Assembly: GCA_963775425.1 (NCBI GenBank)
Contig: CAVZJB010000009.1
Coordinates: forward strand, 1-64,000
DNA length: 64,000 nt
Direction of reading: 5' to 3'
Source of the DNA: an uncultured delta proteobacterium
GTDB lineage: Bacteria > Myxococcota > UBA727 > VGSZ01
The notes below the pieces were generated by a model. It saw only the letters and a list, made by a program, of their open reading frames with translations. It searched no databases and was not told the DNA's origin. The position numbers and the translations under genes are program-made. Below are positions 11,226 to 51,954 of the stretch, piece by piece. The stretch's first letter is position 1. The number at the start of each line of letters is the position of its first letter.

Positions 11226-11231
11226 TACTTC

Positions 11232-13097: not shown

Positions 13098-13141
13098 ATC
13101 CCTAGGCCGCGCCCCCTTCAGGTTCGGCTCAAGGAGGCGTC

Positions 13142-13438: not shown

Positions 13439-13446
13439 GGCACGTC

Positions 13447-13866: not shown

Positions 13867-13880
13867 CGAAGAGGTGACCC

Positions 13881-15878: not shown

Positions 15879-15886
15879 AGGTTCCT
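15866..15886 (+). promoter_or_regulatory. Direct repeat AAAGGTTCCT x2 (11-bp period) over the stop codon; candidate operator
   Basis: Copies at 15866-15875 and 15877-15886. Confidence 0.5.
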
Positions 15887-16030
15887 GTCCGAGCTCTTCG
15901 CGCGCCGCAGCAACCGACCTTTCTCCGACCCATCGACCTCCTCGCGGACGGCAATCTTTCTCGTGACGGCAGCGTGGTGCTGACGTCAACACGGACGGCA
16001 GCAAGGGCTGACGTCGAAACGAGAAAGAAA

Positions 16031-16666: not shown

Positions 16667-16698
16667 GCCGACGAACAACAACAAAGAAGGAGGTGTGT

Positions 16699-18000: not shown

Positions 18001-18003
18001 CGG

Positions 18004-19122
18004 TCAGCCCTTGGCGTTCTTGCCGAGCTTCACCATGAGCTCGGCACCGAAGCCGGGGCTGACCATCTTTTCTCTGCGCAGGCGACCGACAACGACGCAA
18101 GGATCGACGCCGACGCTGCGCGCGAAGCGAACGACGTCGTCGATCGTCGGAGCCGTGCGTGCGAGAAACATGCGGAGCGCCTTCGGGTCGATCAGCGTGT
18201 CCGTGGCATAGCGGTCGGCTTCGGCTTCTTCGACAGCGACGTCCGGAGCAATATCTTGATCTTCGTCTTCGATGAAGATCGCGCGCTTCGCATGAAAGAG
18301 GATGTGAGCAGCTTCATGGAAGAAGTTGAACCAGAAGATGTCGAGACGGTCCCACAGGAATGTGTTTTGGATGAGCGCCTTGTCCTGTGAGAGCCAACGG
18401 GCCGCAGCCTTGATGCCCGCACCTGGGAATTCCTCGACCATCACGACGACGACGCCGGCCTCGGCGCAGAGACGCTGGATCTCCGGCATGATGTCGGCGA
18501 GCTTCTTCTTCGTGAGCAACGTCTCGCGGATGGTCTTCACTGCGGCGACAAAGCGGTCGCGGTCGTATGGAGCTGGCGCCACTTTCTGCGCCTCAAGCTC
18601 ACCGCTGCGTAGCCACGCGGCGATTTTCCCGTGCTTCTCAGAGACGCTTGGCGTGCGGCGCCACTTCGACTGGTGGTCGATGTACAGCGCCTTCCAATTC
18701 TCGGGGGTCGCCATCCCGAAGAACGACAAGACCTCACGAGCGCGTTCGGCGCGTGTGTGCGTGGGCCTCAGCCACTTTCGCTTGACCATCTCGTTGAGCG
18801 GCAAGCTCCACTTGGCGATTTCGGCGTCGTAGTCGAGGAGGCGCTTGTCTTCCTCTTGGCGCGCAAGCGACTCGCGGTAATTCTGTTCGCGGCTGAGCCA
18901 GAAGCCCGCAGAGGGCTCGCCGAGCACGCGTTCGAGCTCGAGCGCGGTGTCCGGCGTGATCGCTGTCTTGCCCTTGACGATCTCGTTGATGGTTTTCTTG
19001 GGCCGACCCATGCGCTGGGCGAGTTCCGACTGCGTCATGCCGCGTTGATCGAGCAACTCGACGAGCGTCTCGCCGGGGAGCGACACGACGGGCGGCTGGT
19101 ATTTGTTCTTCGTCTCAGTCAT
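18004..19122 (-). CDS. higA: HigA-type XRE antitoxin fused to an ImmA/IrrE Zn metallopeptidase
   Basis: PGETL...MTQSELAQRMGRPKKTINEIVKGK HTH; FWFNFFHEAAH...EAEAD. Confidence 0.88.
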   Translation of the reverse strand: MTETKNKYQPPVVSLPGETLVELLDQRGMTQSELAQRMGRPKKTINEIVKGKTAITPDTALELERVLGEPSAGFWLSREQNYRESLARQEEDKRLLDYDAEIAKWSLPLNEMVKRKWLRPTHTRAERAREVLSFFGMATPENWKALYIDHQSKWRRTPSVSEKHGKIAAWLRSGELEAQKVAPAPYDRDRFVAAVKTIRETLLTKKKLADIMPEIQRLCAEAGVVVVMVEEFPGAGIKAAARWLSQDKALIQNTFLWDRLDIFWFNFFHEAAHILFHAKRAIFIEDEDQDIAPDVAVEEAEADRYATDTLIDPKALRMFLARTAPTIDDVVRFARSVGVDPCVVVGRLRREKMVSPGFGAELMVKLGKNAKG

Positions 19123-19450
19123 CTGCGGTCCCGATTCCAAGCACGCGAACGGTGGTCACCTGGGTCCAGTCGGCGTTGCCGTGAGTCGCGGCCCGGTCGT
19201 CGACGGGCTCGAGGATGAGGCCGTGCGGTGGCTGAACAGCGATGTGGAGACGACCGAGCTTCTCAGCATCACCGGTCAGCGCGCCCGGAATGCCCCGAAC
19301 GTCGCGCAGCGTCGGCGCGGCGCGTAGGTCGTCGAGCCGCCTGCGGATGCATCGGGCCATGTCTTGGCCCCACTTCTTCTTGAGTGCCACGTCGTCGTGG
19401 AAGAGCTGCTCGACTTTGTCCGTCTTGAAGGTGATATCCACGGACATCAT
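19115..19450 (-). CDS. higB: HigB/RelE-family toxin
   Basis: DITFKTDKVEQL...KKWG...IRRRLDDLRAA; lies upstream of and overlaps higA. Confidence 0.78.
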   Translation of the reverse strand: MMSVDITFKTDKVEQLFHDDVALKKKWGQDMARCIRRRLDDLRAAPTLRDVRGIPGALTGDAEKLGRLHIAVQPPHGLILEPVDDRAATHGNADWTQVTTVRVLGIGTADD

Positions 19451-27868: not shown

Positions 27869-28158
27869 TGACCACCTCCGCTTCTCAGCAATTCGGAGAT
27901 GGGCCCCCGCAGGAGCTTTCTCAAGTTTTCTGCGGGGGCTTCTTGCTCTCCCCTCAAGAAACTTGATCAGGAAGGGGCATGCGGCCCGCGATCTTCGTGG
28001 TCGTGCTCAACCGTGCGACGGATCCTGTCGCGCAGACTATCCCTCAGGTCTACTCGGTGCTGCGACCGTTCTTGACGCACCCCTGCGACATGATCCCCCG
28101 ATGAGCGCTCGAATCCCAGGTTCAAGCGACGTCGGTCGACGTCGAAAGCGAGGGCGAG

Positions 28159-29124
28159 ATGAGTGACGTTCCCGGCACCGCGGTCGCAGTCTGGCACCCG
28201 TCAACCCGACCCGTGGGCGACCTCGCGCTCGACACGGCTGCTGACTGGCCGTGGCACGCCCAGAGTCTTTGCGAGGCGCGTCGCGCTCGGCTCCACGCCC
28301 GCGCCTTCGCGGTCGTCGTCGCTGCGCGCAGCACGGGTCGCGTGCGGCTTGAGTCGCGGCTCTGCTTCGCCGAGCGCACCGGGCCACCGGGAGCGATCGT
28401 CCTGGGTTCGCACCCCGCTTGTGACGTCACGAACCTGCACGGCACCTGCCTGCGGCACGCGCTCGTTCTGGGGTGGCCCGATGCTCGCATCGACGTCCTC
28501 GATCTGCGGACAGGCGTCGGTATCGGCGTCGATGACGCACGGTGCGCGCGCGTGTTCGGGAGCAAGGCGGTCCGGTTCAGCGTTGGTGACGCGGAAGTCT
28601 TCGTCGCCGAGGCCGCGCCGGGCGAAGAGCTTCGCCTCTCGTGGGGGGAGCTTGAGCGTCGGGTGAATGGCGCTCGCCCGACGTGGGCGCCCCGCGCCCA
28701 CGTCGCTCGCCAAAGATCGCACGAAGCGACGAGCGCGTTGCGGGAGTCCACGGCGACGCGCTACGGGCTCACGATCGCGCTTCGGGAGCAGCAGCGCGCC
28801 GTCCGCAGCGACGAGGGCGGCCGGCGAATCGTCGTCACGTCGACGATCGAGGAGCTCGAGCGCGGGGTTGTGATCGGGCGCTACGACCGCTGCGATGTCC
28901 AGGGGCCGCTTGCCGGGGACAACAACGTCTCGCGGGTCCACGCTGTCGTCGTCCTCAGGGACAACAAGCTCTTCATCGTCGATGCCGCCTCCACAAACGG
29001 CACTCAGGTGCGCGGGGCTGGCCTCCGAGAGGCCGCCGACCTCTTCGGCGCCGAGCGGGCCCATGAGCTCCGGGCCGAGGAGACCATCCACGTCTGCGGT
29101 CACCGGGTCGAGATTGTCGTGTGA
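28159..29124 (+). CDS. FHA-domain protein
   Basis: IGRYDRC...VSRVHA...DAASTNGT, plus a degenerate N-terminal FHA. Confidence 0.82.
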   Translation: MSDVPGTAVAVWHPSTRPVGDLALDTAADWPWHAQSLCEARRARLHARAFAVVVAARSTGRVRLESRLCFAERTGPPGAIVLGSHPACDVTNLHGTCLRHALVLGWPDARIDVLDLRTGVGIGVDDARCARVFGSKAVRFSVGDAEVFVAEAAPGEELRLSWGELERRVNGARPTWAPRAHVARQRSHEATSALRESTATRYGLTIALREQQRAVRSDEGGRRIVVTSTIEELERGVVIGRYDRCDVQGPLAGDNNVSRVHAVVVLRDNKLFIVDAASTNGTQVRGAGLREAADLFGAERAHELRAEETIHVCGHRVEIVV

Positions 29125-29390
29125 ACGGAGATGACCATCACCAGTTCGAGGAGGCCTGGGCGGGCGGCGTTTCGCGCCGGGGAACACCCCAACAAGATCG
29201 AACTGCTCGCAGAGGGAGCCCGCACGGGCGTTCAGGCGGCGTTTTTGTGCAACTCCCTCCTAGACCCACGAGATTTCAAGGAGTTACATCGTGACGCACG
29301 GACGTTCCCGGGTTGTCCCCAACAGGCTTTGCGGGCGACCTTCTTCCTGCGGTGTTTGCCGGCACCGCCCGGTGAAGCGGCACAAGATCC

Positions 29391-31979
29391 ATGCACGTCG
29401 TCTTTGATCTCGACTTTGATGAAGGCAGCTGGCCGGGGCCATCCGATCAGGGGGCGACCGTTGGCGAAGCTTGGCTTGGTCCGAACGGCTTGGTGTCCAG
29501 GCTCGAGCTCTCGCTCGGGCTCAACGGGATCTTCCCGACCAAAGCTCAGCGTGTAGCTTGTCTTGTTTCGCGTTTGGGGAAGCCCGGGTTTTGGTCCGGA
29601 TCGGCGTTGGTCGATCCGATCGGCACCGCAGTCCGTCTGCTCGACTGGCGCGACGACCTCTGGAGCCATGGCTGGCGAGGGCAAAAGACGGGCGCCCAAC
29701 GTCTCGATGCGATCGCTGAGCTAGCCGGCGATATCAACGGAGGAGCACCGGACCGACTCTCGTCGATCACGAACACGCTCGATCGACGCAGGACGGACGT
29801 CACGAAGATCGAGCTCGGAACCCCTCGGGAACATCTTCCTGCGATCTGGCGAGAAGTCCTGACGAAGCTCGCCGACCGTCGCGTCATGGTCCGCGATGCT
29901 GCGTTCCGGCCCGCGTCATCGACGGGCAACCTTGCAAACGCGCGTCGCGACGGCTTTCAACCGTCCTTCTCCGACCCAAGCCTTCAACTCCTTCGGCCGC
30001 CGGGTCCTCTCGCCGCCGCCGAGCTCGTCGCGGCCTACCTTGCCAGCGTCAACGACGCGTCGACCACGGTGGTCGTCGGTGGCGACCCGATTCTCGACGA
30101 GGCCATGCGACGGTTTGCCCGACCCACGGCGGGCGCCTGCTACCCGGCCCAAGAGAACGCTCTGACGCAGCTCCTCGGCAACGTGTTGGAACTGGCGTGG
30201 TCGCCCGTGCACCCCGATCGGGCCTTCGAGCTTCTTTCACATCCCGATGGACCGATCCCGGCGGTCTGTGCGCGGCCCCTTCGTCGCGCCCTTCAAGAGT
30301 GGCCGTCAACGACAGCGTCGACGTGGATGCAGGGCCTCGAGGACGCATTGGCCGCAATCGACGACCTGAAGCGCCGAGCCGATATCCGCCAACGCATTGA
30401 GACCTTCTTCACGCCGGCGAGCTCGGCGGAGGTGGGCCTCAACCAACTCGAGCCGCGCGTGGTGGCGCTTCAACATTGGCTTCGGGCGCGTGCCGCCACG
30501 TCGACGACACCCGACGACTACCTGGCTGCCGCAGCGCAATCGACTTCCTTCCTTGAGCTCGTTCGCGCGAGCGGCCTTGCTGTCCTCACCAAGACACAGG
30601 CGCGACAGATGGTGGCGCTCGCATCGCCGTCTAAGGGGACGAGTCGCTTTCCCGCTGAGGCTCATCTCCACTCTGTGGGACAGCCAGGCGGCGTCGCCGC
30701 ACCGGCTGACAGAATTGTCTGGTGGAACTTCACGGAGGTGGCCGGCGCTCGCCTGCCGACCGCGTCTCTCACAAACACAGAACGCGCCAGCCTCAAGAGC
30801 ATCGGCGTGAGCGTGCAGACGAGAGGTGATGCAGCGCAACGCGCCGCACATCGCTATAAGCGGCCGCTTTGGCGCGCGAACCGCACGCTCCTCCTCGTGT
30901 GCCCCGAGGTTGGGGTTGACGGGGAGCAGGTCCATCCGCATCCGCTCTGGGATGAAATCACGGCGCGGCTCGTGCGCAGCGACGACCGACGAGCGCTGCT
31001 CAGAACCGCTCCGGTTTTGGAGTCTGAGCTTTCTCAGTCGGCACGCCCGCGAGCAGCGGTGGTCGCCCCGCGACGAGCGTGGTCGGTGCCGGCAGGCACG
31101 GTTGGAGCGCGGCCCAAGGAGTCCCCGTCGAGCATCGGCACGCTTGTGGGGTGTCCCCTCCGTTGGGCGCTCACCTACCACGCGCGGCTGAGCAACGCTC
31201 CGGCGGCAGCTGCGAGAGTCGACGGACGGCTCTACGGCCTCATCGCGCACGAACTCCTTGCAGAGCTAGGGCGCAGCGGATCGTTCTCGTTGGCGAACAT
31301 CACTGACGTCGCACGGCAGCTTTTCGATAAACGCGTCGGCGACCTTGCGTCGGCGCTCTTCCTCCCAGGCGCACACCATGAACGAGCGCAACTGCGAGAG
31401 GTGATCGCTGCAGCAGCAACGCGGGTCGGCGCCCTCGTCCAGAAGCACGGATTCACCGTCGTCGAGGTCGAGACGGAGAGAAGCCGCACCATCGCGTCCA
31501 TTCCTCTTACCGGCACGCCTGATCTGGTGCTCCGCGCTCCAGGCGGAACTTCCGTCGTCGTCGACTTCAAGTGGGGTGGGGAGAGCGTCCATCGCGAAGC
31601 GCTGAAGAACGGTGCCGCTCACCAATTGGCCGCGTACGTCGAGCTCGTCGCCGACGGCGGTGGCCCACGACCAGCGGCGGCCTACTACGTGCTCCGTGCG
31701 CAGCGCATCATCGCGGACACGATCGGTTTGTTGCCCGACGCCGAAGAGCTCGCGTTCGTCAGCAGCGCTGATTGCTGGGACGCGACGGTGAAGGCGTACG
31801 ACGAGGCGATAGCTGGATTCTCAACCGGCGTCTGCGCGTCTGGGGTTGCAGACGAAGCGCACCAAGACCTCCCCGAACGCGGCGAGATCGTGGATGGGCG
31901 GCTGAGCCTGCCCGCGCCGTGCGGTTTCTGCGATTTCCATCATCTCTGCGGACACGCCCAGCAGCAGGGGCAACGCTGA
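29391..31979 (+). CDS. AddB-like protein: inactive helicase scaffold plus PD-(D/E)XK nuclease with Fe-S cysteines
   Basis: SPSS...GCP, GTPDLV...VDFK...QLAAY, PCGFCDFHHLC. Confidence 0.85.
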   Translation: MHVVFDLDFDEGSWPGPSDQGATVGEAWLGPNGLVSRLELSLGLNGIFPTKAQRVACLVSRLGKPGFWSGSALVDPIGTAVRLLDWRDDLWSHGWRGQKTGAQRLDAIAELAGDINGGAPDRLSSITNTLDRRRTDVTKIELGTPREHLPAIWREVLTKLADRRVMVRDAAFRPASSTGNLANARRDGFQPSFSDPSLQLLRPPGPLAAAELVAAYLASVNDASTTVVVGGDPILDEAMRRFARPTAGACYPAQENALTQLLGNVLELAWSPVHPDRAFELLSHPDGPIPAVCARPLRRALQEWPSTTASTWMQGLEDALAAIDDLKRRADIRQRIETFFTPASSAEVGLNQLEPRVVALQHWLRARAATSTTPDDYLAAAAQSTSFLELVRASGLAVLTKTQARQMVALASPSKGTSRFPAEAHLHSVGQPGGVAAPADRIVWWNFTEVAGARLPTASLTNTERASLKSIGVSVQTRGDAAQRAAHRYKRPLWRANRTLLLVCPEVGVDGEQVHPHPLWDEITARLVRSDDRRALLRTAPVLESELSQSARPRAAVVAPRRAWSVPAGTVGARPKESPSSIGTLVGCPLRWALTYHARLSNAPAAAARVDGRLYGLIAHELLAELGRSGSFSLANITDVARQLFDKRVGDLASALFLPGAHHERAQLREVIAAAATRVGALVQKHGFTVVEVETERSRTIASIPLTGTPDLVLRAPGGTSVVVDFKWGGESVHREALKNGAAHQLAAYVELVADGGGPRPAAAYYVLRAQRIIADTIGLLPDAEELAFVSSADCWDATVKAYDEAIAGFSTGVCASGVADEAHQDLPERGEIVDGRLSLPAPCGFCDFHHLCGHAQQQGQR

Positions 31980-31980
31980 G

Positions 31981-34900
31981 ATGAAGAACATCCAGATCAT
32001 CTCGGCGTCGGCCGGCAGCGGAAAGACGACGAGGCTCGCCCGCGAGCTTGAGAACGCCGTGTCCGTGGGAGGTGTTAGCCCCGATTCGATCCTTGCCACG
32101 ACGTTCACTCGCAAAGCTGCATCAGAGCTCTTGGAACGCGGCCGAACGGTGCTGCTTGCTGCCGGCCGCGTCGATGAAGCAGAGCGCTTCGGTGCGGCGC
32201 GAATCGGCACGGTCAACGCGGTCTGCGGCCGGTTGGTCGCCGACTTTGCCTTTGAGCTCGGCGTGTCACCGGACCTCGAGGTGCTCGACGAGAAGAGAGC
32301 TGGCGAGTCGTTCAAGCGCTGCCTCAGCGACGTCGTCACAAAGCAGGAGCTTGCGCGCCTTACGGAAATCGGAACGCGCTTTTACGAGTTCGATTGGCAG
32401 CACGCCGTGCAACGGCTCGTGGAGCTGGCGCGAACGAATGGGATCGCTGTCGAGGAGGTTCCTGTCTCGAAGGCGAGCTCGACTTCTCGGCTACCAAGCG
32501 CTGCTCGGTACAGCGGAGCCGGACGGCATCGCCATCGACGCAGCCCTTGTCGAGGCGCTTGAGGGCTTCATTGCGGGCGTGGAAGCGAACCAGGTATCCG
32601 GCGTCGACGCTACCAGCGGGACCGCCGAGGCTTTGGCGGAAGCCCGGCGCTCCCTGAACGACATGCGAGCCCTGGGCTGCCAGGAATGGCGCCGATGGGT
32701 GAAGCTCGCGAAGCTGCAGACGCGCAAAAAGTCGGAGCATCTCTTGCCCCCGCTGCACGAGGCTGCGCTGCGGGTGCACTCGCATCCGGCGCTGCATGCA
32801 GACGCGCGGGACGCCATCGAGATCGTGTTCGACGTCGCTGCGCGAAGTCTGGCTGCGTACAGCGCGTACAAGAACGAGCGACGCGCGATGGACTTCGTTG
32901 ACCAGGAAGCGCTCGCTCTTCGCCTTCTGCGATTGCCTCCAGTCGCAGAGCAGTTGCGCGAGGAGATCTCGCTCGTCTTGGTGGATGAGTTTCAGGACAC
33001 GAGCCCCATTCAGCTCGCGATCTTTCTCGAGCTCGCCGGCATCGCGAAGAAGAACATCTGGGTCGGCGATCAGAAGCAAGCCATCTACGGATTTCGCGGC
33101 ACCGATCCCGCCTTGATGGATGCCGTCGTCATCGAAATCCTCGGCGACGCCGAGCCCATCACGCTGTCGACGTCTTACCGAAGTCGGCCGGCGCTGGTGA
33201 AGCTGACCAGCGAGGTCTTCTCGAAAGCGTTCTCGCTGCAGGGCCTTCCCGAAAGCCGCGTGCGACTCACGCCGGGAAACCCGCAAGAGGCGGCAGGGCT
33301 CGGGCCTATCGTTGAGAGATGGACGCTGGGGAGCAAGAACCAGGAAGCCGATGCGCGCGCCCTTGCCGGCACCCTGCGATCGTTTCTCGCCGATGACGAT
33401 GTTCGTATCCGCGACCGTGGTTCGAACGCAGCCCGCAAGATCCGCCCGCTCGACACCGCCGTTCTCTGTCGGCGGCGAGCGATGTGCGCGCTGGTCGCTG
33501 CGGAGCTCGCAGCCGCTGGCGTTGCTGCGGTGTTGCCGCGGACCGGCTTGCTGCGTACGCCCGAAGGTCGGCTCCTGCTCGATGGCCTTCGCCTCTGGGC
33601 AGATCCTGACGATGCCCTCGCGGCTGCCGAGGTTGCCCGGTTCGTCTCCCTGGTGGACGACGCTGACGGTTGGCTCCTCACCGCATTGCAGAACCCCTAC
33701 GGCCAGAAGTTCCGGGAAGCGGAGCCCGTGGCCACGGTACTCGCTGTTCGCGCGGCAAAGCCCCACCTCGGTCCCCTGTCGGCTACGGACGAGGTCATGA
33801 CTGCGCTCGGGATTCGCGAGCTGTGCCTTCGCTGGGGGAATGCCGCCCAGCGGTTGGGCAACCTGGATGCCTTTCGTGCACACGTCGTCGCGTTTGCCGC
33901 GCGTGCGAGCGAAGACGGCATCGCGGCCACAGTCTCGAGTCTGGTGAACGACCTCGCCCGGCTCGAAGAGGAGGACGAGGACTCGCAAGCCGTCGTTGGC
34001 TCAGCGGACGCCGTCACGGTGACGACGTGGCACGCAGCCAAAGGCCTCGAGTGGCCGGTGACTGTTCTTTTTCAGCTCGAGAAGGATCCGATCGTCGCAT
34101 CTTTGGGTGTCCACGCCGACGCAACAACAGCGGCGGTCAACTTCACCGATCCGCTGGCCGGCCGACGTGTCCGATTCTGGCCGAACCCCTTCCATCCAAA
34201 CCAGACCGACACGCCGTTTCACGAGCGTCTCTCACAGACCGAGGAGCACCTGCGCGCGGAAGCGCGTGAGCAAAGCCAGGAGCTTCGGCTCTTGTACGTC
34301 GGGTGGACGCGAGCGAGAGACCGCGTGGTGCTGGCCGGCCGCGGGAGCCTGACCGCTGGCATCCTCGGGTTTCTTCGCGACGCGAACGGGCCGTTGCTGG
34401 TTGCTCCGAAGCCCACAGCAGACATTGGACCCGCGAGTGACGTCGTGTGGGCCGGGGAGGCAGTTGCGCTCCGTGAGCGTATGGCCGCCGTCGACTCTGC
34501 AGAGACAGCCGAGCTCGCGCTCGAAGTCGCGTTCGATGCGCCAGCTCCAAGGCTGTACGCGCCTGCTTTTCTCGCGCCGTCATCGATCGCAACCGAAGGC
34601 ACGAATTCGCCACCCATCGTCATCGGTCAGCCAGTGCCGCTCCCGGGCGACCTCGACATGGCGGCGCTGGGAAATGCGCTCCATGGCTTCTTTGCCGCCG
34701 ACCTGCCCGGCCTTACAGCCGAAGGACGCGTCGAGCTCGCTGCGGAGCTGCTGCGCAACTGGCGCGTCGGTGAAGCACTGGACCCCAACAGCGTCGTCAC
34801 CATGAGCGATCGCTTGCGGACGTTCGTGAACGGGCGTTGGCCCAATTGCGCTTGGCATCGAGAGTGGTCGGTCGAACGCGTCCTCGATGGCGGCACCCGA

Positions 34901-35140
34901 CTTCGCGGGGCGGCCGATCTGGTTCTTGAAACCACAGATGGCTTCGTCGTCATCGACCACAAGAGCTATCCGAACCCGGGCGGAGCTGAAGAGCACGCAC
35001 GAGCCTTTGCAGGGCAACTCCACGCTTACGCCGGTGGCATTGAAGCCGCGCGGAAGCGACCCACCCTCGCCACTCTCGTGCACTTCCCCGTCGCCGGTCT
35101 CATGGTGCCGGTCGGCCTCGCGGCCGTGGTGGCTCCATGA
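31981..35140 (+). CDS. AddA/UvrD-like SF1 helicase-nuclease (one frameshift near 32480)
   Basis: ASAGSGKT, TFTRKAA, VDEFQD, VGDQKQAIYGFRG, HAAKGLEW, LYVGWTRAR, ADLV...IDHK...QLHAY across two frames. Confidence 0.88.
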
Positions 35141-35772
35141 GGACCACTCCATCGACGTCGTCCAAGAAGGGGCCGGTCTACAGCGCCGACATCACCAAAG
35201 GCGCGTTGATGATCCCCGAGAGCCGCGTCGTCGCCAACGTCTTGCTGCAGTCGCCGCAGCTCTCGTCCGCAGAGTGGGAGGCGCAGGTTGTGCGGGAGAA
35301 CATGTTGCAGAAGCGAAGCCCGGTGACAGCGCGCAGCCGCGCACGCTACCTGCGCGCCCGACTCTCGGTGGGCCCCGCGACGTTGCTTCCGCTGTTGGCG
35401 CGGGGCGATACTGAGCTCGCTGCACAAGCCGCCATGGCGCTTGCCATCAAACACAGCCGCCTCCTCGGCGACTACCTCGACCAGGTCGTGAGGCTTCAGC
35501 GGCTTCGCCAGCAACCCTCGCTCGTCGCGAAGGATTGGGCCGCCTTCCTCGACAACGCGGAAGGCTACGCGCCCGAAGTGCATGCATGGAGCACCTCCAC
35601 CCGGCAGAAGCTGGGGCAGGTTGTACACCAGGCGATGAGCGAGGCGGGCTATCTCGCCGACACGAAGTCCAAGCGCCTGCAACCCGTTCGAGTGCGCGCC
35701 GAGATCAGGCGTGTGCTCGACGATGCGCGAGAGGAATACGTGCTGCGATGTCTGGGGGTTGCGGAAGCATGA
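35137..35772 (+). CDS. brxA: BREX protein BrxA (DUF1819)
   Basis: YSADITKGALMIPESR...ENMLQKRS...WSTSTRQKL...EAGYL; operon position. Confidence 0.9.
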   Translation: MRTTPSTSSKKGPVYSADITKGALMIPESRVVANVLLQSPQLSSAEWEAQVVRENMLQKRSPVTARSRARYLRARLSVGPATLLPLLARGDTELAAQAAMALAIKHSRLLGDYLDQVVRLQRLRQQPSLVAKDWAAFLDNAEGYAPEVHAWSTSTRQKLGQVVHQAMSEAGYLADTKSKRLQPVRVRAEIRRVLDDAREEYVLRCLGVAEA

Positions 35773-36350
35773 CGAACGACGACAACTTTCAGGAGCGACT
35801 GGACGCGGTGCTGCCACGACTCCGTTCCAAGGACTTTCTCGAGTCCACGGGCCTCGGGAACGAGATCGCGTTCTACGTCTTCGACTACCCGCCAGTTCAC
35901 GAGCTGAAGGTGCGAGATGAGATCGCTTCTGTTGTGAAGAAGCTCGCCGGAGACAAGCCGCCCATCAAAGTCCGCCACATCAACTTGTTCGATGTCCTCG
36001 TCGATCACCTCAAGGAGCGTGGTTTCCTCGACAAGGTGTTCGAGATGCAACGCACCAAAGGGGACGACGCGGTGCTGTCGCCCCTCAAGGGCCCGCTCGA
36101 TGCCAAACGCTTTGCCGACGTCGTCGTGGCGGCAGCGAAGCCGAGCGAAGTCGACCTTGTGCTCGTGTCAGGAGTTGGCGGGGTTTACCCGCTGATCCGC
36201 ACGCACCAACTCTTGAACAACCTTCATCCGCTGGTCCCGCACACGCCAATGGTCTTCTTTTATCCCGGCGACTACGACGGCAAGCACTTCCGGCTCTTCG
36301 GGAAGCTTCAAAACGACAACTACTACCGTGCCTTCAAGCTCGTGAGCTGA
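35769..36350 (+). CDS. brxB: BREX protein BrxB (DUF1788)
   Basis: GLGNEIAFYVFDYPP, YPLIRTH, FYPGDY, NYYRAF. Confidence 0.93.
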   Translation: MTNDDNFQERLDAVLPRLRSKDFLESTGLGNEIAFYVFDYPPVHELKVRDEIASVVKKLAGDKPPIKVRHINLFDVLVDHLKERGFLDKVFEMQRTKGDDAVLSPLKGPLDAKRFADVVVAAAKPSEVDLVLVSGVGGVYPLIRTHQLLNNLHPLVPHTPMVFFYPGDYDGKHFRLFGKLQNDNYYRAFKLVS

Positions 36351-36361
36351 GTGGGGAATTC

Positions 36362-39300
36362 GTGAAAATCCAGGCGCTATTTCTGAAACAACTCGACAGA
36401 CCCATCAACGGCGTCGTTAAGGCCGAGCAGGTCGCCAACGAAGTCGTCTGGAACGAGCTCGACGAGTACCACGTCACGAAGGAGCTCGACGGTCACCTGC
36501 GGAAGTTCCTCGAGGCGTACACCGCCTCGATCAACTCCCCGACCGACAACATGGGCGTCTGGATTTCGGGCTTCTTCGGATCCGGCAAGTCGCACTTCCT
36601 GAAGATCCTCTCGTACTTGCTTGCTCGGCGCTCGGCGACGCATCCGCAGTCAGGCATCGCCAGGGATGCTGTCGAGTTCTTCAACACGAAGATCGGGCCG
36701 AAGGCTGGCGCCAAAGGCGATCCGGCGCTCTTCTCCGATGTGCTCACTGCGACATCCAAGCCGACCGACGTGCTCCTCTTCAACATCGATGCGAAGGCTG
36801 ATGCGAAGTGGGGTCGCGACGCTGTGCTCCAGGTCTTCGTGCGTGTCTTGAACGAGCGCCAGGGTTTCTCCAGCGACCATCCGCACATCGCCTACATGGA
36901 GCGCTACCTGCAGAAGCAAGGGAAGCTCGACGCTTTCCACGCCGAGTTTCAAAAGCGCGCCGGTAGCGCATGGGTCGCAGAGCGCGATGCCTGGCACTTC
37001 CATGAGGACGCGCTGCGTGGGGCGCTCGCCCTTGCGCTTGGGAAGGACGAAGCGGCGACCAAGGCGTGGTTCGACAAGGCTGAGCAGGACTCGGTTGTCA
37101 CGGTGGAGAAGTTGGCGGCGCAGGTGAAGGAGTACCTGGCGACAAAGGGACCGGATCAGCGCGTCGTCTTCTGCGCCGACGAGGTCGGCCAGTTCATCGG
37201 CAACGACACACACCTGATGCTCAACCTGCAGACGGTCGCCGAGCACCTCGGCACCGCGTGCCAGGGGCGCGCCTGGGTCATCGTGACTTCTCAAGAGGAC
37301 ATTGACGCCGTGCTCGGGCAGTTCCGGGCGGTCAAAGAGAACGACTTCTCGAAGATCCAGGGCCGCTTCAAGACGCGCCTGTCGCTTTCAAGCTCCAACA
37401 CCGATGAGGTCATCGGTGCGCGTCTGCTCGAGAAGACAACCGACGCAGTCAAGGAGCTAACGAAGGTCTTCGCGGAGAAGGGCGACATCCTCAAGAACCA
37501 GGTGTCGTTCTCATCGACGAAGAAGAAGTTCCAGAACTACACCGACCCGCAGAGCTTCATCACCGCGTATCCGTTCGCCCCGTACCACTTCGAGCTGGTG
37601 CAGAAGATCTTCGAGTCGATCCGAAAAGCAGGCGCGACCGGCGTGCACCTCGCTCAGGGCGAGCGCTCGATGCTCGACGCCTTCCAATCCGCGGCGCTGG
37701 CCATCAAAGACCGTGAGGTGGGCGCTCTCGTCGCGATCCACCGCTTCTATCCTGCCATCGAGAGCTTCCTCGACACCACGGTCAAGCGGACCATCGACCA
37801 GGCCAAAGAAAACCCGGCGATCAAGGCGTTCCCCGAAGACGTCGAGCTTCTCCGTGCACTGTTTCTCATTCGCTACGTCGACGTGCTCAAGGGAACGGTC
37901 GATAACCTCGTCACGTTGAGTCTCGAGGAAATCGACCAAGACCGGATCGCCCTGAAGAAGAAGATCGAGGCGAGCCTCGAGCGACTTGAGGGCCAGAACC
38001 TCATCTCGCGGAGCGGTGATACGTACAGCTTCCTTACGAGCGAGGAGCAGGATGTCGGCCGCGAGATCAAGAACCAGGAGATTTCCCCAAGCGACGAACA
38101 GAGGAAGCTCGCTGAGCTCATCTACGCGGACGTCCTCAAGGGGCAGGTCAAGCACACGTTCAAGGACAACAAGGTCGACTATAAGCTCACCCGCTACTGC
38201 GACGGCCAGCTCACCGGAAACAAGAAGGACGAAGACCTTGCTGTTTCCGTCGTGACGCCGCTGCACGACACCTACGAAGCGTTCAACCCGGCGCTCTGTG
38301 TCACACAGTCGACCGAGCATGGGGGACAGCTGCTCGTAAAGCTCAGCGACAACCCCCAGTTGCTTCGCGAGTTGAAGCAGTACTTGAAGACCGACAAATA
38401 CGTCCGCTTCAAGACGGACGAGAGCAACCCGGAAACGCTCAAGCGCATTCTTCGCGACCGGGCCGATGAGAACCGCGAGCGTGACGCGCGTCTGCGCGAG
38501 ATGGTGGAGGTGTTGCTATCAACCGCGGACTTCTTCGCCGCCGGCAACTCGCTTAAGCCCAAGAGCACCAACGTCGCCGCACAGTTCGCCGAAGGCTTCG
38601 ACTACCTGGTCCGCAACACGTTCAACAAGATGGTGCTGCTCTCGCACCCAAGCAAGGACGCGAGTGCTGCGCAGGCGGAGACGGCGGCTGTTCTCGCAGC
38701 AAGCGACACGCACCAGCAGGCGCTCGGCCTTGGTCTCGAGGCGCCCAACGGCAAGGCGCTTCAAGACCTGCTGCAGTACGTGAAGCTCAGCTCGAGCAAC
38801 AACCACAAGGTGATCCTTGAGGACCTGGTCTCGCGTTACGAGCGTCGTCCGTATGGCTGGCCCACGTACGATGTCGTGCTGCTGCTGGCGCGGCTGTTCG
38901 TCGCTGGGGAAATCACCCTGCTTCTCGATGGGCAGGCGATGGCCCCGGCAGACGCCAAAGACCCGCTCGCCAAGCGCGCAAACTGGAGCAAGGTCACGGT
39001 GCGCAAGCGCGCGACCACCACCGGCGATGTGCTCAAGAAAGCCCGCGAGCTCGGCAAGAAGCTCTTCGACACCACGGGTCCCGACGGCGAGCAGGAGCTC
39101 TCAACGTTCTTGCACGAGCGCTTTGCCGACTGGCGATCGGACCTGCAGAAGATCGCGCCACTCTTCGCTGGCGGAAAGTACCCGGGCGAAACAGTCGTCG
39201 TTGACGGCCTGCACCGCATTGAAGCGTTGGTTCACCTGGTTGAGCCCACAGAGTTCCTTGGCACTCTCGTAGCAGACGGTGCTTCGTGGCTCGCCTTCAA

Positions 39301-39952
39301 CGACAAGCGCCAAGACCTTGAGCAGTTCTTCAAGACCCAGCGCCCCACCTGGGATGACCTGCGCCTTGCCGTCGACAGCACCTACAAAGCCAACCTGCAC
39401 GCGCTTCTCCACCGCGCTTCGGCGAAGGCGGCCTTCACTTCCATCGGCGAGCTGCTCGCGCTTGCCGAGCCCTACGGGAAGTTGCACACGGCCGCCGCCC
39501 TGCTCGCGACCCTGAAGACGGAGAACGAGGCGCTGCTCGCGGATGTGCGTCCGTCAGCTGTGGCGGCCATCGAGGGCTACGTCGGTCAGCTGAAGGCTGC
39601 CATCGAGCAGGCCGAGAAGACGCGCGGGACAAGCGCCACGGCCGAGCTGCAGAACGGCTGGCTTCATCCGCTGCAAGGTCACCTGAAGACCGCGCAGACC
39701 TCCAAAGAGCTGCCCACCATCGCCGATGCGCAGCAGCGTGCTGAGGAGGCGCGCAACGACGCCCTGGATGACATCGAGCAGTGGGCGAATCCAAAGGTCC
39801 CGAAGCCGCAGCGACCAATCCACACCGTGACGGTGTCTTCGCTCGTCAAGACGCCCTACCTCGAGAATGAGAGGGACGTCGACGCGTTTCTGAGCGCCTT
39901 GAAGGATGAGCTTCTCACCATGGTGGCAACGCACCGCATCCGCATCAAGTGA
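36362..39952 (+). CDS. brxC: BREX P-loop ATPase BrxC
   Basis: RPINGVVK, WISGFFGSGKSHFLK, DEVGQFI, FSKIQGRF, PYGW. Confidence 0.95.
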   Translation: MKIQALFLKQLDRPINGVVKAEQVANEVVWNELDEYHVTKELDGHLRKFLEAYTASINSPTDNMGVWISGFFGSGKSHFLKILSYLLARRSATHPQSGIARDAVEFFNTKIGPKAGAKGDPALFSDVLTATSKPTDVLLFNIDAKADAKWGRDAVLQVFVRVLNERQGFSSDHPHIAYMERYLQKQGKLDAFHAEFQKRAGSAWVAERDAWHFHEDALRGALALALGKDEAATKAWFDKAEQDSVVTVEKLAAQVKEYLATKGPDQRVVFCADEVGQFIGNDTHLMLNLQTVAEHLGTACQGRAWVIVTSQEDIDAVLGQFRAVKENDFSKIQGRFKTRLSLSSSNTDEVIGARLLEKTTDAVKELTKVFAEKGDILKNQVSFSSTKKKFQNYTDPQSFITAYPFAPYHFELVQKIFESIRKAGATGVHLAQGERSMLDAFQSAALAIKDREVGALVAIHRFYPAIESFLDTTVKRTIDQAKENPAIKAFPEDVELLRALFLIRYVDVLKGTVDNLVTLSLEEIDQDRIALKKKIEASLERLEGQNLISRSGDTYSFLTSEEQDVGREIKNQEISPSDEQRKLAELIYADVLKGQVKHTFKDNKVDYKLTRYCDGQLTGNKKDEDLAVSVVTPLHDTYEAFNPALCVTQSTEHGGQLLVKLSDNPQLLRELKQYLKTDKYVRFKTDESNPETLKRILRDRADENRERDARLREMVEVLLSTADFFAAGNSLKPKSTNVAAQFAEGFDYLVRNTFNKMVLLSHPSKDASAAQAETAAVLAASDTHQQALGLGLEAPNGKALQDLLQYVKLSSSNNHKVILEDLVSRYERRPYGWPTYDVVLLLARLFVAGEITLLLDGQAMAPADAKDPLAKRANWSKVTVRKRATTTGDVLKKARELGKKLFDTTGPDGEQELSTFLHERFADWRSDLQKIAPLFAGGKYPGETVVVDGLHRIEALVHLVEPTEFLGTLVADGASWLAFNDKRQDLEQFFKTQRPTWDDLRLAVDSTYKANLHALLHRASAKAAFTSIGELLALAEPYGKLHTAAALLATLKTENEALLADVRPSAVAAIEGYVGQLKAAIEQAEKTRGTSATAELQNGWLHPLQGHLKTAQTSKELPTIADAQQRAEEARNDALDDIEQWANPKVPKPQRPIHTVTVSSLVKTPYLENERDVDAFLSALKDELLTMVATHRIRIK

Positions 39953-40160: not shown

Positions 40161-43100
40161 CTGAACAAGGCCAAGCTCAAAGCCTTCGCGCCCAAGGCGC
40201 GTCGAGACCTCATCCGGGCCGTCACCGACCGCGCCCAGAAGCTCGGCATCACGAAGGATGGTGCGTCCGACGTCGTCATCCAAGGCGACTCGGCGATCAT
40301 CATGGGTCAGCCGTACCCACGGAAGACGGGCGAGATGCGCGAGGCGCTCCGCCAGCGCATCGGACAGCAAGGCTTCTCGCAGGTCATCGAGGCGGCTGCA
40401 TACACGTGGTTCAATCGCTTCATGGCGCTGCGCTACATGGAAGTGCACGGCTACCTCGACCACGGCTTCCGCGTGCTGTCGGACCCCGAGTCCACAGACA
40501 CCGGCGCGCTGCCGCAGATTTTGGGCGAGGCTGAGAACGTCGAATTGCCTGGGCTCAATCGCGAGCTCGTCGTTGAGCTCAAGCTGGCGGGCAACAAGGA
40601 CGCGGAGCTGTACCGGAGGCTGGTGCTCGCGCAGTGCGAGGCGCTGCACGCGGCGATGCCATTCCTTTTTGAGCCCATCGACGACGACACCGAACTGTTG
40701 CTGCCCGACAACTTGTTGCACTCGGATTCGATCGTTCGTGGACTTGTGAACGACATCGACGAGGAGGATTGGCAGGAGGTCGAGGTCGTTGGCTGGCTCT
40801 ACCAGTTCTACATCGCGGAGAGGAAAGACGAGGTCATCGGCAGCGTGATCAAGAGCGAGGATATTCCCGCCGCGACGCAGCTCTTCACGCCCAACTGGAT
40901 CGTCCAGTATCCTCGTTCAGAACAGCGTGGGTCGGCTTTGGCGGCTGGCGAACCCATCGTCGACTCTGTCGCAACAATGGCCGTACTTCATCGACCTGCG
41001 AAGCAGACGCCCGAGGTGCAGGAGCGACTCGACGCCCTGATTAAGTCGCGCATCGTTCAAGACGGCGAAAGCTTGAACCCAGAATCGATCACCATCCTCG
41101 ATCCAGCGTGCGGCTCGGGCCACATACTCGTCGTCGCCTACGACGTCCTCAAGGCCATCTACCTCGAGCGTGGATATCAGCCCCGCGAAATTCCGCGCCT
41201 GATCCTCGAGAAGGAACCTCTTCGGACTCGACATCGACGACCGCGCCGCGCAACTTTCGTCTTTTGCGCTCTGCATGAAGGGCCGTGCGGATGATCGACA
41301 GCTCTTCAGCAAGCCGCCGATTCTAAATGTCCTGCCGATTGCGGACACCGAAGGGCTACGGCTCGACAACCTGGCAACCGACCTCGTGCCGCTCGGCGTT
41401 CCCTTTGCTCACCTGAGCGCTCTCCTCGAGGTGTTCAAACCCGCAAAGACGCGGGGATCGCTTATTCAGATCCCCGAGGAACTGCGCACCGCGTTGCCGT
41501 CGATCGCCGTCACGCTGGAGGCTGCCGGTGCGGCCATGGCCACCCCCGAGGCCCAACTTCAACGTGCGAAAGTCGCGCTACTTGTTCGGCAAGCAAGCAT
41601 CCTCTCGATGAAGGTAGACAACGTCATCGCGAACCCGCCGTACATGAACAGGAAGTACCTGAACAACGATCTCGATGCCTTTCTGAAGACGCAATATACC
41701 GCCACGCAAATCGACCTGTACGCGGCATTTATCATCCGTTCCACTGTATTTGCAAAGGCGACAGGTTTTGTGTCGATGATTGCAATGGATAGTTGGATGT
41801 TCGGGCAGGACTTCACGTCGACGCGAGCTTCCGTGAACGAGCGCCTCACCCCAATCACGGTGGCACATCTCGGAGCCAGGGCGTTCGAGGAAGTGCCTGG
41901 TGAGGTTGTGCAAACCGCGGCGTTCTCGTCATATCGGGGGCCGGTGGGCGACTTCATTGGCACCTACTACCGTCTAACAAAAGCGAGTTCGTCCGAGGAA
42001 AAGCGGGAGCTGCTACTGGCTCGCTCGAACTGCTATCGATCCCGGCTTACAGACTTTTCTCTCTTTCCGCGATGCGCCATGATCTACTACGCCAGTGAAC
42101 GCACGAAGGAAGCGTTTAGAAATGGCATTACGCTCGGTGATTTTGCCGACGTCGCGACTGGACTTCAGACCGGTAACAATCCTCGCTTTATCAAGTACTG
42201 GTTCGAGGTGAGCCGCGAGATGATCCAGCGGGAGGCGAAGTCTTGTGCGCACGCCGAGCAGATCGGCGGACGTTGGTTTCCCTATGTCAAAGGGAGTGAA
42301 TACCGGAAATGGTATGGCAGCCAGCTCTGCATTCTCGACTGGCGCGATGACGGACGAGAAATACGACATCACCCATCAAGTGCGGTGCGCAATCCAGACT
42401 TCTATTTTCGTCCAGGGATTGCATACAACAACATCTCAAAGGTCTTTTGTGCGCGTGCGGTCGATGCCGGGGCAATCTTCGATCAGAAGAATTCTATGAT
42501 TTTTCCTCGGAACGACGAGGACCGAGCCGGGATCCTTGGCTTCTTGCATAGTTCCGTCGTGTCCCCCCTCCTTGAGGTGGTCGCGCAAAAGGACTTCAAC
42601 CCGGGCGCGCTACGGGAGATCCCTCTCGACGGATCCCTCCTCTCCTCCAAGACGGTGGCCACGGCGGTGAACCGACTCGTTCAACTCGCACGGCAGAACT
42701 GGGATGCGTTCGAGCAGTCGTGGGACTTTTCTGGTCATCCAATAGCTTCGTTTCCGTCGACGCGTCTATCGGAAAGCTGGGCGGCATGGCGCGACGCCAA
42801 TGCCAATGACGCGGCGCACGCGAAGCAGACTGGAGGATGAAGTCGATCGCGCCTGCATCGAAGCCTACGGGCTCCAAGCGGAACTCTCTGCTGACGTCCC
42901 CGAGGAGCAGATTACGCTGGTTCGCGCCGATCGTGAAAGGACTGCCAACGCCTCATCTCCTACGCAGTCGGATGCATGATGGGGCGCTACTGTCTCGATG
43001 AGCTAGGGTTGATCTATGCAAATGCTAGCAACATTGGCTTCCAGCCAACCCGCTACAAGACCTTCCCGGCCGATACCGACGGCATCATTCCCATTACCGA

Positions 43101-43686
43101 TGCACTCTGGTTCGACGACGACGCCGCAAAACGGGTTCGCGAGTTCTTGCATGCCATCTGGGGCGCTGAAAACCTCGACGAAAACATGAAGTGGCTCGCC
43201 GAGAGTCTCGGCACCAAAGCCACTGAGCTTCCCGAGGAGACGATCCGTCGGTATTTGAGTGACAAGTTTTTCAAGGACCATCTGCAGACCTACAAAAAGC
43301 GTCCGATCTACTGGCTGTTTTCGAGCGGAAAGGAGAAGGCGTTCGAGTGCCTCGTCTACCTGCACCGCTACAACGAATCGACACTCTCCCGAATGCGCGC
43401 CGACTACGTCATCCCGCTGCAGGGAAAGCTCGCGTCCCGCGCCAAACTTCTTGAGACCGAGGAGAAGCAGGCGACGTCGACGGCCCAGAAGCGCAAGCTC
43501 CAGAAGGAGCTCGTGGACGTCGAGAAGAAGGTTGTCGAGATCCGAAAGTTCGACGAGCTGCTCAAGCATCATGCCGACCAACGCATCACGCTCGACCTCG
43601 ATGCCGGCGTGAACGTCAACTACGGCAAGTTCGGCGACCTGCTCGCGATGGTCGACAAGGTCTGCGGCGAGAAGGAAGAGGAGTAG
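40161..43686 (+). CDS. pglX: BREX-1 adenine methyltransferase PglX (about 5 frameshifts)
   Basis: AYTWFNR, ATQLFTPNWIV, LDPACGSGH, NPPY, YKKRPIYW, DLDAGVNVNYGKF over several frames. Start is CTG or uncertain. Confidence 0.92.
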
Positions 43687-43690
43687 CGGC

Positions 43691-46409
43691 GTGGACACCC
43701 AGCAGCTCGTCACCGGGCTCCGTCAGAAGTTTGAAACCGAGGGCCATCGCATTGTGTTCTGGCACGACGATGCGAAGGCGTTTGAGCTCGAGCTTGCCGA
43801 GTTGCCGCTCGCAAGCCTCGCCGGTGGCGTCACGCTGCTTCGCCTCAGCGACATCGGTGCGCTCGAGGCCAAGGTCCGACTCGAGCGTGCAGAGCCGCAA
43901 ACGCGCTTCCTCGTCTACTCCGGGTCCCGCCAGCCCGAGCCCGAACACGACTGGCTGCTCGACATCCGCCTCTACAGCGGCACGTTCAGCGCCAATCGCG
44001 CGGCGATGTTGTTGAGCGAGCTTGGCCTCATCACGCTCTCGCTCAAGGAGCATATCGAGAAGCGCATCGCGTTCTTCGGGAGCCCGCAGCGTGTGGTGGA
44101 GCTGAAGAAGCTCGTCGACCAGAGCGACACCGCAGACTCCCTCGACCTAAAGATGATCGCAGTGCTCGCCCGTGCGCAGAAGGCAGACATCGATCCGATT
44201 CTCATCGCGCTGCTCCATGCTGCCGTGTCCTCCGGCGGCAAGAAGGGCGCGCTCATCTCGAGCGAAGGCGCCGCTTCCGCGTCGGAGCTGGCGTTGGGCG
44301 CGGCGCCAGCTGTGGCCGACCCCGTCGTGGAGCTTGAGAAGCACGGCTTGAGTGCTGCCTTTTGGAGCCGAGTCAAGGCGCACACCGGGTTCGACGATCC
44401 ATCGCCGTCGCTGAAGAAGTTGGCGACGCGCATGATGGTGTCTGAGTTCGGGCGCTCGCTGAAGGGCGCGGACCTGCCATCGACGTTGAAGCCGCTGCTC
44501 TTGCCCGACGGCAACCACACCGCCGCCGTTCGCGTCTGCCTGTCGACGTGGCGTGACAGCGGAGCCTTTCATCAGAGCTACGACATCTGGAGCCGGCGCA
44601 TCGAGCGCGAGCAGGAGTTGCCGACCAAGTTGTCTGGGTTCACCCGCCAGCAGCTTGCGACCGCGGGGACCTTCGCCATCAGTGAGAAGCTCACCCTGGC
44701 GGCGCTGATGAACGAGCTCGTCGTGGCCTTCGACCCTGACCAGCCGTTTGACCTGCACGGCTACCAGAAGGCCATCAGCGACCGTCGAACCGGCCATTGG
44801 GTGACGGACAAGCTGCCCGACGCAGAGAAGGTGAAGCGCTCGGCCTTCGCCAATGCCTACCGCGCCCTCGAAGCCGTGGCCGACCTCGTGGGCCTCCGCC
44901 GGGCGCACGCAGACGGGTTCTCGTTCGCGACTGTCGAGGCCATGTGGTCCGCGTACACCACCGACCTCCATCGGTTTGACGGTGGCTACCGACGCTTTCA
45001 AGAGGCCGCCGCCGGCGTGGCGGACACCGGAGCCGATGTTTTGAAGCCGCTAGCGACCAAGGTGGAGGCGCTCTACACGGACTGGTTTCTCCCTGAGCTG
45101 GTGAAGGCTTGGATGCCGTTCGTCGAGGAATCGGCCGGACCTGGTCGCCCGAAGTTGCTCGGGACCTGGCAAATCAAAGACGTCCCAGTGCAGATCGATT
45201 TCTATGCGCGCAACGTCGCCCCGATCCTGCAGGACAAGACCGGACCCAAGCGCGTCTTTGTCATCATCAGCGACGCGCTTCGCTACGAAGTCGCGCAGGA
45301 AATCACGAAAGAGCTGAACGGCACGTACCGGTTCAAAGCTGCGCTGAGCTCTCAGCTCGGGGTTCTCCCCAGCTACACCGACCTCGGCATGGCCGCGCTG
45401 CTCCCTCACCAGAAGCTCGCGTTTGACGAGGGCGGCGACGTGCGGGTCGACGGCAAGCGCCGACAGTCGCTCGAGTTGCAGTCCACCATTCTCGAGACCG
45501 TTCACGGCGCGGCTTTCAACGCCGATGACCTGCTCAAGAAGTCGAAGGAAGATGCGCGCAAGGCCGTGAACGGGTTCCCAGTCGTCTACATCTACGACGG
45601 TGGCATCGACGCGGTCGGTGACAAAGCTGCGACCGAACACCTGACCTGCCTCACGGCACGCGACACCATCAACAAGATCGTGCGGCTGGTGGCCGACATC
45701 GTGAACAAGATGAACGGTAGCTACATCATCGTCACCGCCGACCACGGCTTTCTATTTCAGGCCGACAAACAAACCGACCTCGACAAGAGCGCGCTCGACG
45801 AGAAGTCGGCCGGCGCGTTCGATCGCGAAGAAGCGCTACGTCATCGGCAGCGACCTCAAGCCTTCAAGCGGGGCCCTCCATGGGAACACCCAGGCGACGG
45901 CGGGAATCGAGGGGGGACCCGAGTTTCTGGTCCCGTACGGCACGCAGCTCTTTCATCTCGCGGGCGGCGCACGCTTCGTCCACGGCGGCTCGATGCTCCA
46001 AGAGATCGTCGTTCCGGTCATCACCGTCAAAGAGCTCGAAGGCAAGAAGGCCAGCGAGGCCAGACCAGAGCCCGTCAAGATCCAGGTGCTCAAGGGACCC
46101 CACAGCTTCGTCATGAACACGCGGAAGTTCGAGCTTCTCCAGATGGAAGCGGTCGCGGGCAAGGTCGTCGCCGCGCGCATCAGCGTCGGCGTGTTCGATG
46201 ACCAGCAGCTCATCTCGGACTCCAAGGAGGTGCTCTTCGACAGCACCTCGCAGAGCCAGGAGGAGCGCACCAAAACGGTCGAGCTCACGGTCAAGGGCGA
46301 CACGTTCGCGAAGAAGGAATACCGCCTCGTCCTGAAGAACCTCGACACACTCCAGGTGCAGGACTACCCCGTCACCATCAACATCACGTTCTCGAAGATC
46401 GACTTCTGA
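43691..46409 (+). CDS. pglZ: BREX-1 phosphatase PglZ (frameshift near 45820)
   Basis: RIVFWHD, IISDALRYEVA, LPSYT.LGMAALLPH, TADHGF, FVHGGSMLQEIVVP. Confidence 0.92.
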
Positions 46410-51884: not shown

Positions 51885-51954
51885 CCTTACGTTGGCCCTG
51901 GGTGCCGCCGCTTCCTGGTTTGCTGACCATCAACAGCAAACAAAGGAAGAACAG

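Follow-up and report, generated by a model that had tools for sequence, protein, structure and literature searches.

The addB-addA gene pair and the BREX operon

The window analysed here is a stretch of 64,000 nucleotides from an uncultured delta proteobacterium (contig CAVZJB010000009.1, positions 1 to 64,000), in which two adjacent genes resembling addB and addA, the genes of the AddAB helicase-nuclease, are directly followed on the forward strand by a type 1 bacteriophage exclusion (BREX) operon. The addB-like open reading frame (ORF; 29391-31979, 862 aa; PF12705, E = 7e-23) ends in TGA and is separated by one base from the ATG of the addA-like gene at 31981, which extends to 35140 and would encode approximately 1,050 aa if whole (Pfam UvrD and PDDEXK_1). 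The stop codon of the addA-like gene (35138-35140) shares an ATGA with the start of brxA (35137-35140), and the brxA stop overlaps the brxB start in the same way (35769-35772). All of these junctions, which had been noted in a preliminary description of this DNA, were reproduced in the sequence. No alternative in-frame start is present from 35137 up to the conserved BrxA core, and the alignments of homologues begin at 35173-35179.

The genes that follow are arranged as brxA-brxB-brxC-pglX-pglZ-brxL, all on the forward strand, with type 1 models as their best matches, in agreement with the earlier assignment to type 1 BREX. The brxA gene (35137-35772) matched PF08849 and the PADLOC BrxA model (E = 2e-55), brxB (35769-36350) matched PF08747, and brxC (36362-39952) is intact in a single frame (NF033441, 1160 bits against a cut-off of 400). 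The BREX-1 methyltransferase gene pglX (40161-43686, start approximate) lies in three pieces, for all of which NF033452 was the best model, while pglZ of type A (43691-46409; TIGR02687, 564 bits against a cut-off of 270) has one frameshift near 45820 and brxL (46422-48477; TIGR02653, 858 bits for the larger piece against a cut-off of 628) has one near 46935. Further downstream on the same strand are a gene for a type IV restriction nuclease of the GmrSD family that is fused to DUF5655 (48542-50641, start approximate; PF03235, PF07510, and PF18899) and a gene with an NE0113/Csx1-like CARF domain (50638-51958; PF09623 and PADLOC CARF models), which overlaps the gmrSD stop. In the accessible part of a 2026 survey of BREX, GmrSD-type nucleases are a known kind of BREX-1 companion (PMC12839542). 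The CARF gene is followed by a short ORF without a Pfam match that ends beside an IS21-type element (50638-52287).

The only gap upstream of the run from addB to brxB is a 266-bp intergenic region (29125-29390) after a gene encoding an FHA domain (28159-29124), and this region is therefore the likely promoter region. A scan for sigma-70 promoters gave 0 promoter-like sites where 0.5 were expected, too low an expectation for the scan to be informative, and the 4 terminator-like sites found against 6.7 in the scan were equally uninformative. A 9-bp inverted repeat was looked for in 29125-29390 and none was found, no convincing operator palindrome was present upstream of addB or in seven intergenic regions between WYL and addB genes at other loci, and Rfam gave no match. 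The preliminary description had pointed to the lack of a brxR or WYL gene and of room for a brxA promoter. The first point agrees with our Pfam scan, with 0 WYL matches in the 54 scanned of the 261 ORFs listed for the window. As to the second, there is indeed no gap before brxA; however, its absence is not unusual, because on one BREX-1 plasmid just 10 bp separate brxR from the brxA gene 3' of it. Nor is the ATGA overlap specific to BREX, because addA overlaps cas6 identically, as it does brxA here, at two loci of the survey below (L072 and L074). In Acinetobacter, BREX was reported to be expressed as one transcript that starts upstream of brxR, and brxR itself may hold a further promoter (PMC9122589, as far as its accessible part goes). 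The pair in the window is probably co-transcribed with the BREX operon. Compared with type 1 BREX as described in the accessible parts of PMC12839542 and PMC9122589, the gene order, the GmrSD companion, and a leader placed tightly against brxA are shared, whereas the place of brxR is taken here by a 5.7-kb helicase-nuclease pair.

Relationship of the two proteins to AddAB

The AddA-like protein has superfamily 1 (SF1) helicase motifs and a C-terminal RecB-family nuclease, and the copy in the window retains all of the motifs. The fold closest to an intact relative (P0157) was that of Bacillus subtilis AddA (4cej_A, E = 1.5e-38). The AddB-like protein consists of a degenerate SF1 helicase body followed by a second RecB-family nuclease, so that the nuclease motifs described earlier for both subunits could be located. 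In this protein the nuclease residues are H620, E694, D711, D725-K727, and Q745/Y749, and four cysteines (C588, C844, C847, and C853), each kept in 130 of 131 alignment rows, form an arrangement that we take to be an iron-sulfur staple; the nuclease and cysteine residues together are conserved in 128-131 of the 131 rows. The structure model of the AddB-like protein (predicted local distance difference test score 95.7) was most similar to B. subtilis AddB (3u4q_B; Foldseek E = 4e-23; Z 19.7, root-mean-square deviation 7.0, 777 residues aligned), followed by the next-best folds, mycobacterial AdnA (9np6, Z 17.6) and RecC of RecBCD (Z 14.3). This kinship is seen by fold alone, as a search of the PDB by sequence profile gave 0 matches. 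The ESM Atlas returned only unnamed PF12705 clusters, and no PADLOC 2.0 model matches the AddB-like protein.

The pair therefore shares with B. subtilis AddAB (3u4q and 4cej) the best structural match of both subunits, the addB-addA gene arrangement, two RecB-family nucleases, and four cysteines around the AddB nuclease. In contrast, the AddB-like protein is approximately 860 aa long compared with approximately 1,150 residues for the chains of known structure, identity is 11-18%, and the family to which the pair belongs sits on plasmids and in defence islands and scores below curated cut-offs. Furthermore, AddB of the B. subtilis type carries an N-terminal Walker A, whereas the pattern occurred within the first 80 aa in just 1 of the 131 AddB-like rows, and residue 1 of the model aligns to residue 35 of B. 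subtilis AddB. AdnA also has a helicase P-loop; the AddB-like protein does not, and P-loops in both subunits, as in AdnAB, were thus not found. The nuclease of RecC is not intact, unlike that of the AddB-like protein, and no recD was present among the 54 scanned ORFs. With the helicase and nuclease of AddA, the body and cysteines of AddB, and adjacent addB-addA genes, the two-nuclease, one-motor anatomy of AddAB is complete in this family, which makes the two proteins genuine relatives of AddAB in anatomy.

Two other systems were compared. Gabija is likewise a two-gene defence unit with a UvrD-family helicase, and weak GajB matches were obtained. These span the helicase motifs only, however, and the partner is not a GajA-type OLD nuclease but a protein that folds as AddB and matches no PADLOC model; Gabija was therefore rejected. 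The UvrD-Cas4-like fusions, proposed in the accessible part of PMC5704561 as an ancillary component of several defence systems, also combine an SF1 helicase with a PF12705 nuclease, and adjoin type III restriction-modification (RM), Dcm/Vsr, and WYL genes. By that description, on which our comparison is based, they are single chains for which no AddB-like partner is mentioned. This proposal is the nearest idea in print.

Frame changes in the assembled sequence

The addA-like gene was previously taken to run from 31981 to 35140. Its start and stop junctions hold, but it is not a single ORF as assembled, which the preliminary description had missed: the frame opened at 31981 stops at 32562, and between approximately 32460 and 32495 the homologues leave frame 1 and continue in frame 2, consistent with one +1 change without a large deletion. 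Similar changes affect pglX, which has five as assembled, with all six frame-1 stops lying within two out-of-frame stretches, and the CARF gene, which has an apparent frameshift near 51470 (frames judged by eye). Together with those in pglZ and brxL, the frame changes amount to nine over 22 kb, whereas each of the two IS66 transposases is unbroken in a single frame and each of the two IS21-type transposases forms one long ORF. One could suppose from this that the island is decaying, that addA, pglX, pglZ, and brxL are really broken, and that nothing works at this site, which would be compatible with the conclusions drawn below for the family as a whole. However, seven of the nine changes are +1, the aligned parts contained no genuine in-frame stop, the catalytic residues are all retained, and the second IS21 helper gene also appears to be split (by eye). 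Mostly +1 frame changes without true stops are typical of long-read error and not of decay. It is thus quite likely that the frame changes are long-read sequencing errors, and a truly decayed island seems improbable.

Distribution and mobility of the family

The pair belongs to a large and widespread family, with 1,700 clusters at E <= 1e-30. Five intact AddA relatives scored 107-182 bits against the recB/addA models TIGR02784, TIGR02785, and TIGR00609, whose cut-offs are 696-861, and five AddB relatives matched no AddB model at E <= 0.01; the family is therefore set apart from curated housekeeping AddAB. The genome scan was made with a 10-row alignment, the 131-row one being too varied for this use, and therefore the 80 loci that were examined, from 91 matches in GTDB genomes, are biased to closer, mostly Myxococcota-like relatives. 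In these genomes addA directly follows addB in 70 of the 72 loci with room downstream, and two metagenome-assembled genomes (MAGs) carry two copies each (L052/L055 and L076/L081). A full-length AddB-like gene was found on 26 plasmid records, and the pair was present in all 15 that were inspected. The pair is a self-contained two-gene unit. A phage origin was considered and rejected, since the pair occurs in 1 of 50,697 phage records, and this record is an unverified, unannotated scaffold (L098:9001-14783).

Synonymous codon use differs between the pair and the brx core of the window (G = 86, 40 degrees of freedom, p = 3e-5), with null results for the controls, addB versus addA (p = 0.39) and brxC versus pglZ plus brxL (p = 0.25), and the pair and the brx core likewise differ at L024, a locus discussed below. 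This difference favours capture. The synonymous GC content at third codon positions (GC3) of the pair is 0.72-0.74, compared with 0.80-0.92 in the other gene sets compared. Capture of the pair as a separate module, one of the two possibilities raised in the preliminary description, is supported by its nature as a two-gene unit, by its presence on plasmids and next to many unrelated defence systems (below), and by the codon use.

It might also be argued that the pair is the housekeeping AddAB of this genome, against which a BREX cassette merely landed. Among the fetched loci, the relatives of highest identity (AddA 50% to L053) do lie in a clade with stable genomic surroundings. In contrast, the window is an island rich in insertion sequences (IS), with two IS66, two IS21-type elements, one further integrase pair, and two ParB genes, the GC3 of the pair is lower than that of the other gene sets, and the trees place the pair outside the stable-context clade, all of which, with the window as the part of this genome covered, makes this explanation highly improbable.

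Defence genes around the pair

The genes neighbouring the pair were called with a custom script, approximately 306 of 454 representative neighbours were scanned, and defence calls follow a hand list. With these methods, defence genes were called in 28 of the 57 genome loci that have 6 kb or more of flanking sequence, a figure that stands without a matched control. A WYL gene was present in 15 of the 80 genome loci. On the 15 inspected plasmids, defence-type neighbours were annotated in 12 and a WYL gene in 6, and they included CBASS, McrBC, Azaca- and Druantia-like genes, ubiquitin-like operons, AbiE, and SIR2. The pair also stands directly at the head of defence operons. Of the 52 loci that extend 1.5 kb or more downstream, 10 have a same-strand defence operon that starts within 400 bp of the addA stop (six Cas, and one each of BREX-6, Azaca, Shango, and type I RM with HsdM), and McrBC is also among the operons directly led by the pair. 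As far as counted, the family is enriched in defence neighbourhoods.

Among the Cas loci, addB-addA directly leads a type I-B CRISPR-Cas operon (cas6-cas3-cas8b-cas7) at L072:755-13941, L074:411-13612, L084:3740-11677, and L057:7526-19996, although L084 shows only cas6; a divergent WYL gene precedes these pairs, with none in view at L057. The pair leads type I-G at L065 and cas4-cas1-cas2 at L082. It has been reported that AddAB is positively associated with type I-B in Proteobacteria, in the accessible part of PMC6452273. A Cas-leading pair would be a possible operon-encoded supplier for spacer acquisition.

A different picture was obtained for a short-branch group of eight loci in stable non-defence surroundings (L019, L026, L034, L039, L040, L053, L060, and L066), in which the defence calls were 0 of 8; L070 and L085 are similar. 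In L019, L026, L034, L039, L060, and L066, as well as in L040 and L053, a FAD oxidoreductase gene lies upstream and a DUF6600 gene downstream, with OmpA in three. This fixed context, shared by several MAGs, fits a repair role, and the clade has possibly been domesticated as a resident AddAB. Moreover, RecD-like helicase or SbcCD-like genes lie near the pair at L049:7072-9003, L058:2-1309, L047:5131-9962, and L059:14067-17614, and SbcCD- or RecD-like genes are also found near the pair at L086. The pair may be seen as a repair module that resects breaks for RecA-type recombination and travels with defence islands and plasmids, mending self-inflicted cuts or aiding the recombination of the element that carries it, and in some lineages acting as the resident AddAB. 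Its architecture is the same as that of repair AddAB, and WYL regulators, for which the accessible part of the literature gives DriD as an example, also control DNA-damage genes. However, the scores are far below those of the housekeeping models, the pair repeatedly heads defence operons, and it is found on rhizobial plasmids, the hosts of which presumably have a chromosomal addAB. We therefore regard a repair module as unlikely.

Linkage of the pair to BREX

The preliminary description had also suggested a dedicated BREX machine and proposed scoring the adjacency of homologues to BREX. BREX genes were found in 3 of the 80 genome loci, all of type 6, and in none of the 15 plasmid loci, while other defence systems often adjoin the pair. 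In L024, addB-addA is followed after 87 bp by brxE-brxA-brxB-brxC-pglX on the same strand; in L063, BREX is divergent and addB is interrupted by an IS; and in L055, BREX lies approximately 9 kb from the pair. BREX-1 adjoined the pair in 0 of 96 loci. Conversely, BrxC is present on 272 plasmids; as just 27 plasmids have an AddA-like gene, at least 245 of the former lack the pair. Furthermore, ten genera were named for BrxC (234 records), and the eight genera with the pair are not among them. A conserved linkage of the pair to BREX was thus not found across the family, and these low counts on both sides mean that a dedicated BREX machine fails as a family-wide rule.

The only other locus in which the pair leads a BREX operon, L024, is nevertheless the nearest relative of the window with known genomic context. 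The two were sisters in the AddB trees (FastTree 97, IQ-TREE 90/89), the AddA trees (FastTree 98 and 88, IQ-TREE 83/94), and a concatenated tree (83/94, bootstrap not settled); partial or broken rows were omitted from the trees, and the IQ-TREE runs took 19-26 chosen rows. In a 218-row tree, the window and L024, which is matched by P0143, fall inside an 11-row clade with a support of 99, together with eight further proteins (P0002-P0004, P0012, P0118, P0124, P0129, and P0145). Both of the 2 members of the window's sub-clade with known context lead BREX, with moderate tree support, and this grouping would point to more than chance capture. In the BREX-6 locus, AddA has a C-terminal extension of approximately 160 aa without a Pfam match (L024:15892-16377).

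Such a result could mean that one sub-lineage has travelled with type 1 and type 6 BREX as a dedicated partner, degrading DNA processively after BREX recognises it as unmethylated. By a post hoc estimate the probability of the sisterhood by chance is approximately 1 in 52, the accessible part of PMC12839542 places types 5 and 6 near type 1, and addA overlaps brxA start to stop. The sister result is nonetheless a lead only, because it is one test with a post hoc chance value and the branches are long (0.8-1.3). There are two cases, no IQ-TREE value reaches the 95/80 mark, the concatenated bootstrap is unsettled, the BrxC proteins of the window and L024 are just 26% identical, and the pair and the brx core differ in codon use at both loci. 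When the absence of BREX-1 next to the pair elsewhere and the many BrxC plasmids without it are added, a dedicated partnership appears doubtful.

Proposed role of the pair

The explanation that we favour, with a probability of about one half, is that the pair is a compact AddAB-type helicase-nuclease of a mobile accessory branch, which was captured as the leader of a type 1 BREX operon with a GmrSD companion, and which serves as a general plug-in and not as a core BREX component. A general plug-in is preferred over a BREX-specific part because the family adjoins many different defence systems. Several findings weigh against this explanation. In the assembled sequence, the reading frames of addA and of three brx genes are interrupted. 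The rate of defence neighbours has no matched background, it comes from a scan of about two thirds of the representative neighbours, and 4 of the 28 defence calls, as opposed to the other 24, are single genes or toxin-antitoxin systems. Five of the six Cas loci belong to one clade of the AddA tree and are therefore not independent, the eight short-branch loci have no defence call, and the window and L024 cluster together.

AddAB loads on double-stranded ends and degrades DNA processively. From this biochemistry we infer that the two subunits would form a heterodimer that loads on a free double-stranded DNA end, where AddA would unwind the DNA and the two nucleases would degrade both strands, with a possible anti-phage effect. 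In a defence island, the pair would most likely complete the destruction of invading DNA, either linear or already cut by whichever system lies beside it; in the window, this could involve cuts made by GmrSD or PglZ nicks turned into breaks. Where WYL sensors or Cas1-Cas4 adaptation adjoin the pair, it could also feed DNA fragments to them. It has been reported that PglZ is a nicking nuclease, that auxiliary effectors are proposed to complete degradation, and that auxiliary nucleases are common in BREX loci (accessible part of PMC12839542), and that RecBCD and presumably AddAB shield cells from mobile elements (accessible part of PMC6452273).

A bolder version of the capture of a plug-in nuclease would be that AddAB has an unrecognised mobile branch whose task has changed from repair to immunity, as a DNA-end shredder heading defence operons that cut DNA (CRISPR-Cas, RM, McrBC, Azaca, Shango, and BREX), often under a WYL sensor, and that one sub-lineage has been wired to BREX, supplying processive degradation beyond PglZ nicking. 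In this full form we hold it to be improbable. If defence islands do carry a mobile AddAB branch of their own, a two-gene cassette would make two questions directly testable, namely the way in which BREX destroys or blocks phage DNA and the help that host RecBCD/AddAB is believed to give to restriction and CRISPR adaptation.

Both BREX-1 with extra nucleases and AddAB are known, and the accessory pair would be the new element, of interest mainly as a candidate defence accessory across the family. UvrD, AddA, AddB, and RecB are absent from the main text of the BREX survey PMC12839542, the supplement of which lists BREX neighbourhoods and may contain such loci, and no such system is listed in the accessible part of PMC12904381. 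In the literature covered, which left out most subscription papers, we found no description of an accessory AddAB-like pair and no experiment on the family. The pair is a candidate defence module absent from PADLOC 2.0, with intact copies on plasmids of culturable, non-pathogenic bacteria, such as those of Sinorhizobium meliloti (L003) and Methylocystis (L002).

Other features of the window

Three long ORFs (451, 456, and 665 aa) without a Pfam, PADLOC, or NCBIfam match lie within the island at 8312-15878. A 17-bp imperfect inverted repeat (27921-27966) is located between the divergent genes at 27868 and 28159. Approximately 10 kb upstream of the pair, at 15728-19140, are multi-ubiquitin/E2 and JAB-ThiF genes with an HTH-IrrE regulator, and the pair is flanked by ubiquitin-like operons of a similar kind on 4 of the 15 plasmids (L001, L087, L090, and L092).

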